DNA of 64,000 nucleotides from Alphaproteobacteria bacterium. Its GTDB lineage: Bacteria > Pseudomonadota > Alphaproteobacteria > MPNO01 > UBA830. The notes beneath the pieces were generated by a model. The model ran no database searches. It saw nothing but the letters and a program-made list of their open reading frames with translations, and had not been told where the DNA came from. Shown one piece after another: positions 4,481-9,410 of the stretch (positions within the stretch are counted from its first letter, which is position 1; each line of letters begins with the position of its first letter). Both the position numbers and the translations under genes were made by a program. The DNA lies in assembly GCA_964291215.2 (NCBI GenBank), contig OZ219790.1:960001-1024000 (forward strand), in the 5' to 3' direction.

Positions 4481-5068
4481 TGCTGCAACCGGTTCAACCG
4501 CTGGCGCAAGAAGGGAGTCTGGGATCAATTGATGGATACGATAGTGGAGGCTCACGACGGCAATGTGCAGATGATCGATAGTTCGAGCGTCCGGATTCAC
4601 CAGCATGCGGCGGGATCAAAAAAGGGGGGGGCGGATCGTTGCATGGGCCGTTCCCGTGGCGGACTGACCACGAAGATCCACGCCGTGTCGGACGTTACCG
4701 GCCTGCCGGTCCGCTATGACCTCAGCCTCGGCCAAGCACATGACACCACGGCCGCCGGCGCCATGCTGGCGCCCCTGCCGCCCGACAGTTTCCTCGTCGC
4801 CGACAAGGCCTATGACGCCAAATGGATCCGTGACCTGATCGAACATCACAATGCCGTCCCGATCATCCCCGACCGAGAAGGCGCGAAGACCAGGCACGCC
4901 TTCTCCAAATCCTTGTATCGATTGCGAAACCGGATCGAACGCGCCTTCAACAAGCTCAAGCAGTTCCGACGCATCGCCACCCGCTACAAAAAGCTCGCTG
5001 CCAACCTCCTCGCCATGATCAAGATCGCCACTGTCAGGCTCTGGCTACGCGCTTATGAGTCCACGGCC
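4481..5068 (+). mobile_element. IS5-family (IS427-like) transposase, 5'-truncated but internally clean
   Basis: NRFNRW...IDSSSVRIHQHAAG..GRSRGGLTTKIH..ADKAYD..RNRIERAFNKLKQFRRIATRY; A/G run at ~4618-4631; end GAGTCCACGGCC. Confidence 0.9.
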
Positions 5069-5069
5069 A

Positions 5070-5507
5070 CTAATCAGTGGTCAGGAACCGCCAGCCTACT
5101 TTTTTGGCAAGCCGCTTCGCGAACCCTTTGGTAATTTTCCCCCACGCATTGCAGTGGGCGTGGTCGCTGGGTTTAGGGTCCCATCCCACCTTGAGGTCGA
5201 CTTGTCGAAGCTCGACTACCGGGAAACAGGCGACGGCATCAAACCGGCCCTCACCCCATTGGTCGACACTCTTACCGATGCACTTCAGTATCTTCTTTAC
5301 GGCAAGTGACATGCCTTGATGCTTGTCGCTGGAAGGGCGAAATGCACCCGAAGATATCCGGCGCTTGCCGGTGTTGCGGTCGCAGATAATGTGCTGCCGT
5401 GGAATGCCGCGCAGCAAGGTGTCACCCGCATGAATCTGCGGATGGTCATGCGGAATTACTTCCCCTTCATCATCCAGCGGAGAGGGACACGTGGGTGCGC
5501 AGCCCAT
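5070..5507 (-). CDS. Hypothetical protein, putative ADP-ribosyltransferase-like toxin
   Basis: 145-aa ORF; ATG directly follows the upstream TAG (TAGATG); motifs LLR..., SSGAF, GMSL, DHAH. Function is inferred. Confidence 0.6.
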   Translation of the reverse strand: MGCAPTCPSPLDDEGEVIPHDHPQIHAGDTLLRGIPRQHIICDRNTGKRRISSGAFRPSSDKHQGMSLAVKKILKCIGKSVDQWGEGRFDAVACFPVVELRQVDLKVGWDPKPSDHAHCNAWGKITKGFAKRLAKKVGWRFLTTD

Positions 5508-6254
5508 CTAACGGCGCAACGCTCGGAACAGGCACGAGATCTTCGCAAGGTCGTGCAGACTGTCAATAGGGGCCTCGACGATGCTTCCATCGTCAGTGCG
5601 TTCGTGGTGTAAGGAGGTGGCACAGTCAGGGGCAATTTCGACCTCGATTTCATGGACGCCGACATACCATTCCAGCTGCAGCCCCCCGTTCGAGAGCGGA
5701 ACCACATCCGGCCTGAACGTCGTATGCCTACCGATCGCGTCCAAGAGGCAAAGTACGTGTTTTGCGATGTCGGGCAGGACCGCGATCCCGTCGTAGCCAT
5801 CCCATCCAGCCTCAAGTCTGGTGAACTCATTGATAGTTGCACGGGACCGCTCCGTGAGCGTCTCGATCGGAGCAGGTTCCGCCCACTCGAACGGGAACAA
5901 GACACTCGACTCCGTAAGGCGTGTCGGAAGATTACCCCAAGTTTCTTCTCCCGTCGATGCACCAAGTGTACGGTTCGACCCCGAGGCAGCCTCTTTGAAC
6001 AGTCGAGGCACTTCCGCAAACATCAGAGCGAGGTCGTGGGTCGGGCTCTCCCCCTCCCCGGAACGGAACCGCCAAACAGGGTCGTTAGTGGCGTCGGTCC
6101 AATCAGTGTCAACATTTCGATCAGCTGACACGGGCGCAGGGGAGGCATTGAGCAATCGTGAATAGGACCTCTTTTGCTGCCCTAGCTTAACGGACCGGTG
6201 AAACCCCTGCTCGGGAGCGTTCGATGTGGACAGTATCGCGAGCATGTTATCCAT
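5508..6254 (-). CDS. Conserved hypothetical protein (GWDGY...PLSNGGLQLEW C-terminal domain), putative antitoxin/adaptor
   Basis: 248-aa ORF overlapping the upstream stop (ATGGATAA); N-terminus looks low-structure, C-terminus looks like a compact domain. Confidence 0.65.
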   Translation of the reverse strand: MDNMLAILSTSNAPEQGFHRSVKLGQQKRSYSRLLNASPAPVSADRNVDTDWTDATNDPVWRFRSGEGESPTHDLALMFAEVPRLFKEAASGSNRTLGASTGEETWGNLPTRLTESSVLFPFEWAEPAPIETLTERSRATINEFTRLEAGWDGYDGIAVLPDIAKHVLCLLDAIGRHTTFRPDVVPLSNGGLQLEWYVGVHEIEVEIAPDCATSLHHERTDDGSIVEAPIDSLHDLAKISCLFRALRR

Positions 6255-6920
6255 GATCCCTTCGATCTAGGTTCTCAATCAGGTCATGGGCACCACGCCA
6301 GAGCCTCCTCAGCATGTCCTTCATTTCATTGTCATCGGGCATCCGCGCCTCGGGGACATGAAGATTGGCACTCAGGAACACTTTTGTGGTTTCGGCGACC
6401 TGCAATCTGGGCTCCAGCGTGATTGTCCATTGCCAACCTTCCTCATGTGCAAACAGCTTTCCGGCTCCACCCACATGTGTCCATCGTTCGTTCAACTCGT
6501 TCGCGCGGACGAAAAGACGCCGACCCAAATAGGTGCGTGCGGCCTCTCCAGAGTCCTGATCGTAGACCATGTCGATGTTGAAGCCGAAGGCCGCAGGACT
6601 TTCCTCCTGCAGGTTAGTGTTGGTGGCGGCCAAGCCTGCCAACCGCACGACCGATTCCACATCATCGACTTGCCCAGGATACTCCCGTACCACTCGCGTA
6701 GTGTGCTTGGCTGTTTCCACGAACATGCGATCGCGCGGGATCGTCAGTCGGCGGCCTTGGCTGGGAGTAGATTGAGTTGGGTCGAGGGCCAGTCCGACCT
6801 CGGTGATGATCTCTGATTCGAGGGTGGCGCGAATGCGACGATCTCGTTGTCGGTCCTGAGTAGCTGAAGACCGAGAAACACAGCGTTGATCGAGAGGACA
6901 TCTTGGACAGTTGTTGCCAT
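6247..6920 (-). pseudogene. TIGR04255-like protein with a 1-bp frameshift near 6830
   Basis: RBS AGGGAAG precedes ATG at 6920 (MATTVQDVLSINAVFLG...IVAF). Adding one C at TTC|GCGCC joins it to RATLESEII...AFGFNIDMVY...FLSANLH. Confidence 0.55.
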
Positions 6921-7013
6921 CACGCTTCCCTGTGACAGGCTCCAGTTGCGCACACTTTGATGCCGAGTGTAGGATTTCCAGAGGCCAAATGCAATGGAGC
7001 GCAGGATCGTTTT

Positions 7014-7310
7014 CAGGTGTTTCCCACGCTGCATTCAATTTTGCTGTCTTCTGCTGTCCGGAGGTTTCACGGCGTGCCGGGTTTTCTGGCTTCGGGGCCG
7101 TCCGCGGTCGTCGCCGGCGGCGTTACCGGCGCGTGGGCGGGCTGTTTTCGGGATGTGGGCGGCGTCCGGGAATCGGCCGGACACCATTGGCGCTCAGGGC
7201 CGGGCTGCGACGGCTTCCCGGCGGTCGAGCCGCCGCCGTGTTTCGGCGAGGTTCTCGCGTCGGTTGGCGAAGATCACCGCGAGCGCGATGTTATCGAAGC
7301 TGGCGCGGTT
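7014..7310 (-). mobile_element. ISAs1-family element, 3' remnant
   Basis: Matches 38700-39003 reverse-complemented; end CAGGTGTTTCCCACGCTGCATTC. Confidence 0.8.
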
Positions 7311-7827
7311 GATTACGCAACCTGATGTCTGGAAATTGTCGTGAAGCTCTCAGTCATCGAGCTGTTCCCATTCGATCTTGGTTTCGGTTTCCCATTTTTC
7401 GTCGATGAGGACCGCGGTTGAGAGGCGCTCCAACGAGGCGAGGTTCGGAAAGACCCTGACTTTGGAGGTGCGCCGCTTGAGCTCTTGCTGGATCGGTCGC
7501 TCGATGCCGTTCGAGGTTCGCATACGCTTGTGGTGAGCATCGGGCAAGGTGAAGACAGCGAGCCCCGCATTCTTTTCCAGCCAGGAAGCCCGGATGCTTG
7601 TCGCGATAGCTGGCCACGAGGGCGCCCAGTTCAGCCTCGGCGGTTTGGAGTGAGGACGCATGGCTCCGAGCTGTTTTCCAATACGTTTCCTGATGTCGTT
7701 GTTCGGTGCACGGCGTTTTGCGCCAAGTGGAACTGGCAGCGCTGCCACGTCGCCGCGCCCAGCACCGCGCGTCGTGCCGCTTTCAGCCCGGCATCCGAGA
7801 CGATGAAGGTCGTACCATGTAGGGCTA
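7311..7827 (-). mobile_element. IS256-family element, 3' remnant
   Basis: Near-duplicate of 8181-8690; RTSNGIERPIQQELKRRTSKVRVFPN; cut at CTAG by IS5. Confidence 0.85.
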
Positions 7828-8180
7828 GGTTGTGGACTCAAATAATTGGTTTGCGATTCTGCGGAGCAAGAATCGGCTGGCAGCCAGTTGCACGGCGGAG
7901 AGGAAGTTCCTTGTCATAACGGGTGGCGACCCGTCGGAACTCCTTGATCTTACCGAAGAACCGCTCGACCAGGTTGCGCATCCTGTAGACCTCGCGGTCG
8001 AGCGGTCGTGGCAATGTCCGGTTGGATTTCATGACCGCGGTTGCTCCTGCTGTCTCGATTAGGTCGAGAATGGCGTCGGTGTCGTAGGCCTTGTCGCCGA
8101 CCACCGTCTCGCCATGCCCGAGGTCGGCGAGAAGCGCCTCCGCCTGCGCGCAGTCGGCCGCCTGGCCCGGGGTCAGGAAC
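7828..8180 (-). mobile_element. IS5-family remnant (degenerate)
   Basis: GDKAYDTDAI...RNLVERFFGKIKEFRRVATRYDK; end GGTTGTGGACTCA at CTAG. Confidence 0.85.
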
Positions 8181-9410
8181 GATTACGCAACCTGATGTCT
8201 GGAAATTGTCGTGAAGCTGATCGAGCTGTTCCCATTTGATCTTGGTTTCGGTTTTCCATTTTTCGTCGATGAGGACCGCGGTTGAGAGGCGCTCCAACGA
8301 GGCGAGGTTTGGAAAGACCCTGACTTTGGAGGTGCGCCGCTTGAGCTCTTGCTGGATCGGTCGCTCGATGCCGTTCGAGGTTCGCATACGTTTGTGGTGA
8401 GCATCGGGCAAGGTGAAGACAGCGAGCCCCGCATTCTTTTCCAGCCAGGAAGCCTGGATGCTTGTCGCGATAGCTGGCCACGAGGGCGCCCAGTTCAGCC
8501 TCGGCGGTTTGGAGTGAGGAGGCGTGGCTCTGAGCTGTTTTCCAATACGTTTCCTGATGTCGTTGTTCGGTGCACGGCGTTTTGCGCCAAGTGGAACTGG
8601 CAGCGCTGCCATGTCGCCGCGCCCAGCACCGCGCGTCGTGCCGCTTTCAGCCCGGCATCCGAGACGATGAAGGTCGTACCATGCAGGGCTAGCAAGCTTT
8701 CCAGGAAGGCTCTCCAATGGACCTCAGCCTCGGAGAGCGCCACAGAGAGCCCCAGAACGTGCCTGCAGCCCCTATTCCGATGGCCGAGAGCACTGCGACA
8801 TCGCGCACAACGCCGTCATGGCGGGCTTTTTCATAGCGCGCATCCAGGATCAGGTATTTCATCAGGGGCCGGTTGCGCGGCGAGTTCTTCGTCGAGCAAC
8901 CTGGTGGCCCCCTGAGAAGAGGACAGGCTCCCGAACTCGCGCATTACATCCTGCCGCGTGGAAACACCCTTGATGTACATCTCGGCTACGGCGCGAGAAG
9001 ATCGCTGGCCGCGTTCAAGCGACTGGGGGGGGGTCGTCCCCGTGACCGTTTGGCACCTGAACGGTAACAGTGGGGGTGTCGATCCGCTTGTAGCCGTTGG
9101 CCCTGTCGTTCCGGTGTCCGGTGGCCCGCTTTCAAGTGCTGCTCGCGCTCGATTTACATCGCAAGCTCGAAAAGCTGACCAAAGATCCGCCCCAGATCCG
9201 TTGCTCCGTTTGCGATCAGATGTTCCAAAACGGCCTCAATCGTCGTAGTGTGTCGCAGGTCCATTCGCTTCCTCCATGAATGTTTACAGCTCCATGGGAT
9301 AGCACGATGGCACCGCGTTTCACTGGGGGGGGGGGGGGCTAGCCCCCCCCCCCCCCAACGCCTCAAAGCGCAAACCTCAGACAAATTTCCAGACATCAAG
9401 TTACAGTACC
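8181..9410 (-). mobile_element. IS256-family IS, end-to-end but degenerate
   Basis: IRs GATTACGCAACCTGATGTCTGGAAATT / GGTACTGTAACTTGATGTCTGGAAATT; fragments EMYIKGVSTR, SEAEVHWRAFLESL, WQRCQFHLAQNA. Confidence 0.85.
9325..9356. repeat. Perfect palindrome G14-CTAG-C14 in the IS256 5' region
   Basis: Read directly from the sequence; the related copy at 21671-21690 has only G6. Confidence 0.9.

Follow-up and report, generated by a model that had tools for sequence, protein, structure and literature searches.

The window analysed here is a stretch of 64,000 nucleotides from an alphaproteobacterial genome of 6.15 Mb (contig OZ219790.1, assembly GCA_964291215.2). It contains three adjacent genes on the minus strand, which together form a cassette of approximately 1.9 kb. 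Gene 1 (6920-6247, minus strand) codes for a candidate regulator, either a chaperone or a sensor, and is frameshifted near 6829. Gene 2 (6254-5508, minus strand) codes for a candidate antitoxin of 248 aa, and gene 3 (5507-5070, minus strand) for a candidate toxin of 145 aa with a predicted ADP-ribosyltransferase (ART) fold. The overlap of gene 1 with gene 2 is ATGGATAA, and the TAG of gene 2 directly abuts the ATG of gene 3. This coupled arrangement had been described in a first-pass annotation of the DNA, along with the motifs LLR, SSGAF, GMSL and DHAH in gene 3 and GWDGY...GGLQLEW in gene 2, and all of these are present. A possible promoter on the minus strand is visible by eye at 6966..6994, consisting of a TTGC-type hexamer, a 17-nt spacer and a TACA-type hexamer. 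This element lies below the threshold of the scanner used, and the promoter and terminator scan of the cassette returned no sites. A similar promoter-like element stands upstream of gene 1 in the related locus L010.

The cassette is bordered by repeated DNA on both sides. An insertion-sequence remnant on the plus strand (4529..5068), presumably IS5-like, ends a few bases from the stop codon of gene 3. In the left flank, blastn matches in the genome reach 55 per 100-nt bin, with 3-4 beside gene 3. Upstream of the cassette, repeated, high-copy insertion-sequence debris occupies 7014..8950 (strand not assigned), and the right flank gives up to 117 matches per bin. Between these flanks, 5100-7000 is single copy in the 6.15-Mb genome, which bears out the description of the genes as stranded among such debris. 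The loose contig ends of public sequencing runs fall at 5065-5068, at the border between the remnant and gene 3. Within the upstream debris, a degenerate transposase element is found twice (7310-7850 and 8180-8950), apparently with the same broken frames. It has approximately 100 matches in the genome, and this decayed element may still spread.

The cassette genes had also been described as less GC-rich than core genes. This holds against the genome (57-58% versus 64%) and for GC3 (0.63-0.66 versus a median of 0.75, with equally low values in 12% of 2052 long ORFs), but the neighbouring ABC transport genes are at 58-62%, which leaves the effect modest. In comparison with the loci L009 and L010, dN/dS is 0.19-0.37 for the C-terminal piece of gene 1, the C-terminal domain of gene 2 and gene 3. 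This purifying selection indicates that the genes are real, that their arrangement is not due to chance and that the break in gene 1 is recent.

Gene 1 is not open in the window, as the shift near 6829 results in an N-terminal piece of 58 aa and a C-terminal piece of 195 aa; its homologs are 220-225 aa in length. Alleles were compared in the contigs of three public runs, X1, X2 and X3, all of which belong to one study and the first of which may be the source sample. The one-base frameshift of the window is carried by the contigs of two of the three runs (X1 and X2), which makes a sequencing error an unlikely origin. A programmed frameshift is likewise unlikely, as most homologs are in frame and the break in L009 is a different one. 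In X3, one extra base at the site of the frameshift leaves gene 1 open. The same run has an insertion behind 5566 that frameshifts gene 2, with the loss of its last ~18 residues, and its ART frame has three substitutions only. The local copy of the cassette is probably silent, since the frameshift removes the gene 1 protein and would uncouple the translation of genes 2 and 3. A high-depth contig of X2, which starts at 6246, tracks gene 3 and the C-terminal domain of gene 2 and diverges sharply in the N-terminal half of gene 2 (5887-6246). This divergence suggests that the upstream module has been swapped within the population.

The predicted ADP-ribosyltransferase and its upstream partner

Gene 3 has no match in Pfam, NCBIfam or PADLOC, and its family has no Pfam model. 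A profile of gene 3 searched against PDB sequences gives chance matches only, and in the ESM Atlas both gene 3 and the C-terminal domain of gene 2 find unnamed clusters only. With Foldseek alone, the structural model of gene 3 (pLDDT 84) has no ART match at E-values of up to 0.001. In the wider structure comparison, ART-fold proteins make up nearly all of the 50 matches listed for this model. The best is Tpt1 (Z 6.5, rmsd 3.3, 101 aligned residues), and further matches include KptA (Z 6.2), AvrPphF ORF2 (Z 5.7), Tse2 (Z 4.7), TreX, DarT and scabin. As every single Z value is middling, the evidence for the fold lies in the agreement across the list. An ART core fold is predicted for gene 3 from this agreement, as the first-pass annotation had proposed from the motifs.

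A profile search with an E-value of up to 0.001 returned a gene 3 family of 356 clusters at 50% identity. The alignment of the family holds 127 sequences, i.e., the query and 126 of the 150 listed, those omitted being mostly fragments and partial matches. R33 is kept in 124/127 sequences, and both S67 and H118 in 127/127. At the late catalytic strand, the 127 homologs have no conserved Glu and carry the invariant H118 instead, which places gene 3 outside the R-S-E clade of ARTs, for which a late-strand catalytic glutamate is the criterion. With this predicted fold and set of residues, gene 3 is quite likely to be a toxin, and one that would consume NAD+.

Gene 2 differs in the conservation of its two halves. 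Among 18 full-length members of its clade, the mean identity to the window's protein is 19% in the N-terminal half and 63% in the C-terminal half, which forms the conserved GWDGY...GGLQLEW domain. Pfam and NCBIfam give no meaningful family for gene 1, gene 2 or gene 3. At least 388 homologs of the C-terminal domain were found, with lengths of 62-254 aa. Following removal of a duplicate (L002), 29 ART loci were examined, three of which lack upstream DNA. Of the 26 others, 25 have the gene 2 domain immediately upstream of the ART, and in the remaining one, L045, the upstream gene is related to gene 2 by blastp (E 1e-11). The same pairing is found in 13 of the 14 loci that had no part in building the domain model.

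A reverse search with the gene 2 domain gave 15 matches in 401 class genomes, resulting in seven new loci. The downstream ORF matches the ART profile at E <=0.05 in four of the seven, at 0.12 and 0.99 in two, and not at all in one; an R..F..S..H pattern is visible by eye in most of these ORFs. Pairwise identities of the ART and gene 2 correlate across 31 loci (r 0.84), a co-divergence that the co-inheritance of adjacent genes could produce by itself. The pairing of the two genes across loci suggests that gene 2 is likely the antitoxin that neutralises gene 3.

A conserved gene order with a variable first slot

The fold of gene 1 was modelled on its intact homolog in L010 (pLDDT 76) and is predicted to consist of a strand-helix-strands-helix unit, repeated twice. 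The top Foldseek match of this model is TBP, with an E-value of about 1e-4. In VIA, the best structure matches come from McsB and from creatine and arginine kinases, with Z 8.6-8.8, next to TBP with Z 7.5-8.3, at an rmsd of 4-5. The guanidino kinase match is tied with TBP and has about 10% identity; owing to this tie, the safe wording for gene 1 is a large curved two-repeat sheet. An unnamed viral protein, A0A515MGR4, is also a good match to the model (TM 0.67). Neither gene 1 nor five proteins from the gene 1 slot of close loci has a SecB match in Pfam, NCBIfam or PADLOC, in agreement with the earlier remark that no SecB is recognisable here. SecB is also absent among the structure matches listed for the model, which are TBP, guanidino kinases and helix-grip proteins.

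These matches allow for a different reading of the cassette, in which gene 3 is not a self-toxin but acts directly on molecules of the invader, either as an NADase or by modifying the ends of nucleic acids in the manner of Tpt1. Gene 2 would then be its activator, and a degenerate enzyme of the guanidino-kinase fold may be encoded by gene 1. The kinases and McsB are the best rows of gene 1, Tpt1 and KptA are the best fold matches of gene 3, and in X3 an open ART frame coexists with a truncated gene 2. However, the 145 aa of gene 3 align only to the C-terminal NAD-binding half of Tpt1 (chain ~84-182), without the N-terminal RNA-binding domain of Tpt1/KptA, and the kinase match is tied with that of TBP. 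A near-obligate upstream partner also suits an antitoxin, and such a role for gene 3 is considered quite improbable.

Gene 1 had further been likened to TIGR04255. For the protein itself, the sequence searches lend this likeness no support: neither gene 1 nor its intact homologs have a match to the TIGR04255 model at its 30-bit cut-off, and comparisons of the gene 1 type by profile-profile, HMM and shallow-profile methods gave scores within or near those of shuffled controls, leaving any homology undetectable by profiles. It does hold for the position in the operon. At seven loci (L021, L022, L024, L038, L039, L044 and L049), a TIGR04255 protein above the cut-off occupies the first slot and is followed by the same two genes, and an annotated member holds this place on a plasmid. 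The window's own gene 1 type is found in L001, L009 and L010, and a second type in L011-L013 and L040. Other proteins of 235 aa occupy the slot in L025 and L043, and short proteins in L008 (weakly DUF3467) and L047. No kinship among these types could be made out from their sequences. A separate gene 1 is absent from L023, L042, L045, L046 and L048. In all three-gene loci examined, the candidate regulator is first and the ART last; thus the three genes do co-occur elsewhere in the same order, which the first-pass annotation had set as a test. From the predicted fold and the exchange of proteins in this slot, the chances are about even that gene 1 is an exchangeable regulator of the gene 2/gene 3 pair.

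The first gene can also be lost. Of the eight closest loci, three (the window, L009 and L012) combine a broken gene 1 with open frames for genes 2 and 3. The persistence of genes 2 and 3 where gene 1 is broken or absent is the main evidence against a strict chaperone addiction, which would require polarity in the coupled operon to account for loci with a broken gene 1. Both the broken and the absent state are explained if gene 1 is a sensor that is dispensable for neutralisation.

It could thus be proposed that the GWDGY protein and the ART form a self-sufficient two-gene toxin-antitoxin (TA) core, as in the two-gene system PDC-M32, with gene 1 as an optional activator or phage sensor. If gene 1 is unneeded for neutralisation, its loss merely disarms the system, which would fit the repeated finding of genes 2 and 3 without it. 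PDC-M32A has the same domain behind a different N-terminal part of 260 aa, and the C-terminal domain of gene 2 is conserved like a folded domain, whereas predicted CmdA consists of two helices and an unstructured tail. On the other hand, the translation of gene 1 is coupled and the gene shows purifying selection (dN/dS 0.19-0.25), and another triplet in this genome starts with a TIGR04255 gene, as would be expected of a general TA chaperone. Such a core with an optional first gene is considered rather unlikely.

The triplet in question (L071, G000:C2:3445388-3446137 and downstream) is the only locus, and a different one, that a search of the genome for TIGR04255 returned. The true TIGR04255 gene is coupled to genes for a 223-aa protein, the middle of which looks HTH-like by eye, and for one of 267 aa without a match to the ART profile. 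This non-ART arrangement is as would be seen with a general TA regulator.

Distribution and genomic neighbourhoods

The distribution of the ART is patchy. With a close profile it is found in 0/60 relatives, and with a wide profile in 4/400 phylum genomes and 10/400 class genomes; a second phylum draw, consisting largely of the same genomes, added one locus. The triplet is present in three of the four viral contigs retrieved. None of the 44 candidate stretches of a viral scan with a single ART query contains a relative, and one gene 2 query has no match in phage records. In one viral contig (L068:3207-4953) the triplet lies between genes that appear phage-tail-like by eye, in the manner of a moron. 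A triplet with an annotated TIGR04255 first gene is found on an actinobacterial plasmid with a MobF relaxase. The genome of the window itself holds another, divergent cassette that is built in the same way (L025:5703-7489, or G000:C2, about 2385.7-2387.5 kb). It is flanked by a phage integrase and a TrwC relaxase, and its middle protein ends in ELAA.

The neighbours of the cassettes were surveyed by a Pfam scan of 105 ORFs from 22 loci. Genes of type I restriction-modification (R-M) systems flank L023 and L049. PIN genes are found near L012, L024 and L043, SNF2 helicases near L043 and L046, and a GIY-YIG domain near L040. A resolvase lies beside L010, and transposases lie beside L009 and L040. 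At about seven loci (L021, L022, L038, L039, L042, L044 and L045), the neighbours are housekeeping genes. The type I R-M locus of L023 also holds a protein with an FRG domain and a long insert rich in Gly, Ser and Asp (L023:3466-4485).

It could be argued that the cassette serves mobile DNA as a module for addiction or stabilisation and has no part in phage defence, as copies adjoin the integrase and relaxase of L025, the resolvase and transposases just mentioned and the MobF relaxase of the plasmid. However, a total of two records turned up when 72,556 plasmids were searched with protein queries, many copies stand alone as islets in chromosomes, and the embedding of L023 among R-M genes fits defence. 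A role restricted to mobile DNA is therefore regarded as improbable. The hints at defence are a kinship to PDC-M32, the R-M neighbours at L023 and L049, the triplets on viral contigs and the patchy distribution. Against it are the many loci among housekeeping genes. On balance, it appears somewhat likely that the cassette functions in phage defence.

Relation to known systems and a possible mechanism

A check with PADLOC had been advised earlier. It gave no match for gene 3, and for gene 2 it gave a link that had been missed, as the C-terminal domain matches the PDC-M32A profile at positions 263-337 of 375 (E 2.6e-7). Weak matches to PDC-M32B are found in 12/127 ART homologs (best E 2.6e-4), to which the window's gene 3 does not belong. 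The gene order is the same, and L023, a true PDC-M32, was retrieved by the ART profile. In contrast to the cassette, PDC-M32 has two genes, with the 260-aa N-terminal region of M32A replacing a separate gene 1. The window's proteins also fall far under full-length scores, with ~75-90 C-terminal positions of the 375-aa M32A matched. By these profile matches, the cassette is related to PDC-M32 and is not a member of it. The PDCs are untested defence candidates (Payne et al., bioRxiv 10.1101/2024.01.29.577857), and M32 is not mentioned in the available part of the main text of that work. In the available part of the literature searched, PDC-M32 appears as a PADLOC call only (PMC12429752).

The available accounts of characterised TAC systems describe a SecB-like chaperone, the gene of which follows the TA pair. 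The cassette resembles these systems, and CmdTAC (PD-T4-9) in particular, in its three-gene operon, its predicted ART-fold effector and a middle protein with a variable arm of low predicted structure. Some relatives of gene 2 also have an AA tail, comparable to the LAA of CmdA, although the window's gene 2 has none. There are also differences. The order is reversed, with the candidate regulator first and the ART last. The effector has R33, S67 and H118 (R-S-H) and not the diphtheria-type H-Y-E triad, which in CmdT is given as H-Y-[E,D,Q] in the part of the source available (PMC11618068). In gene 2 the variable arm is N-terminal and the conserved domain C-terminal, whereas the ChAD of TAC systems is disordered and located at the C-terminal end of the antitoxin. 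The third protein of the cassette, 225 aa in length, is predicted to have a topology like that of TBP and does not match SecB. The suggestion that this may be a system distinct from CmdTAC is thus upheld. The cassette would be TAC-like in its logic and is not a TAC member, departing from the group in the order of the genes, the sequence match to SecB, the position of the ChAD and the triad of the toxin.

Another likeness is to Tse2, a type VI secretion toxin of Pseudomonas aeruginosa (Z 4.7, rmsd 3.5, 101 aligned residues, 17% identity to the gene 3 model). The predicted pocket of Tse2 is made up of R14, T79, S80 and H122 in the part of the source available (bioRxiv 10.64898/2026.06.15.732508). 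Gene 3 has the same Arg-Ser-His order, a comparison of order and not of residue register, and finding its substrate could thus help to explain Tse2. Unlike Tse2, the cassette is without secretion genes.

Azaca is also a three-gene system; it has no PADLOC match in the cassette and is not mentioned in the preprint checked. No description of the cassette family was found in a literature search that was mostly outside subscription papers, and TIGR04255 is not mentioned in the literature searched. Three-gene systems with non-SecB chaperones have reportedly been described by the Aravind group, which the search did not confirm and which could lower the novelty of the cassette. The three-gene systems of Aravind et al. 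2015, as summarised in the available part of PMC7159879, combine an ART toxin, a disordered antitoxin and SecB; the likeness to the cassette lies in the first two and in the presence of a third regulatory protein, and the difference in SecB being that third. The system is undescribed in the available parts of PMC4275035, PMC9503650, PMC8195603, PMC13069673 and PMC8262886, and likewise in those of bioRxiv 2026.10.19.760177, 2025.01.08.631726 and 2022.05.11.491447.

The mechanism of the cassette may follow the logic of CmdTAC. Gene 1, as a curved two-repeat beta-sheet, would bind the variable N-terminal arm of gene 2 and so hold or stabilise it, and the GWDGY domain of gene 2 would bind and neutralise the ART. 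A phage protein would displace or trigger gene 1. Gene 2 would then be degraded, a step for which several relatives carry a ClpX-type AA tail. The freed ART would modify nucleic acid or a component of translation, and the infection would be aborted.

A conserved operon of an ART-fold toxin, a GWDGY neutraliser and an exchangeable gene 1 regulator, which probably acts against phages, is the preferred explanation and is held at roughly even confidence. Against it stand the allele of X3, in which gene 2 is frameshifted near its end and the ART frame is open, the ALRR end of the window's gene 2 in place of AA, and the lack of a catalytic glutamate at the usual position in gene 3, as well as the middling Z values of the predicted folds (gene 3, 6.5; gene 1, up to 8.8) with the tie between TBP and the kinases. 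A broader proposal is that of a large and so far undescribed reversed-order, non-SecB class of TAC defence systems, in which TBP-like saddle proteins, including TIGR04255, would sense the phage and gate a GWDGY antitoxin degradable by ClpXP, releasing a Tse2/Tpt1-like R-S-H ART. This class is put forward tentatively and is doubtful at present. If true, the class would add to the SecB-like chaperones a second scaffold, with first genes that can be swapped, and enlarge the known range of bacterial phage sensing. It would also give roles to TIGR04255, as its first function, and to the candidate PDC-M32, unified in one class. Since the copy in the window is probably in decay, it is the family that is of value and not this allele.

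The C-termini of the gene 2 family bear on the proposed degradation step. CmdA ends in LAA, a ClpXP signal according to the part of the source available (PMC11618068). Of 120 gene 2 homologs, 16 have AA as their last residues, compared with 3.9% of 2619 long ORFs in the genome, in a set of sequences that are not independent of each other. An RR end is found in 25/120, mostly from the clade of the window, the gene 2 of which ends in ALRR. At loci of the TIGR type, AA ends are seen in 4/16 only. In L050:4896-6201 (NZ_CP014688.1), two tandem GWDG-like domains are followed by an annotated gene for the ClpXP adaptor SspB and there is no ART, an arrangement that is another hint of a ClpXP link. Downstream of the cassette in L009, at a distance of 3 kb, there is a clpX gene (L009:9521-10924), probably by coincidence.
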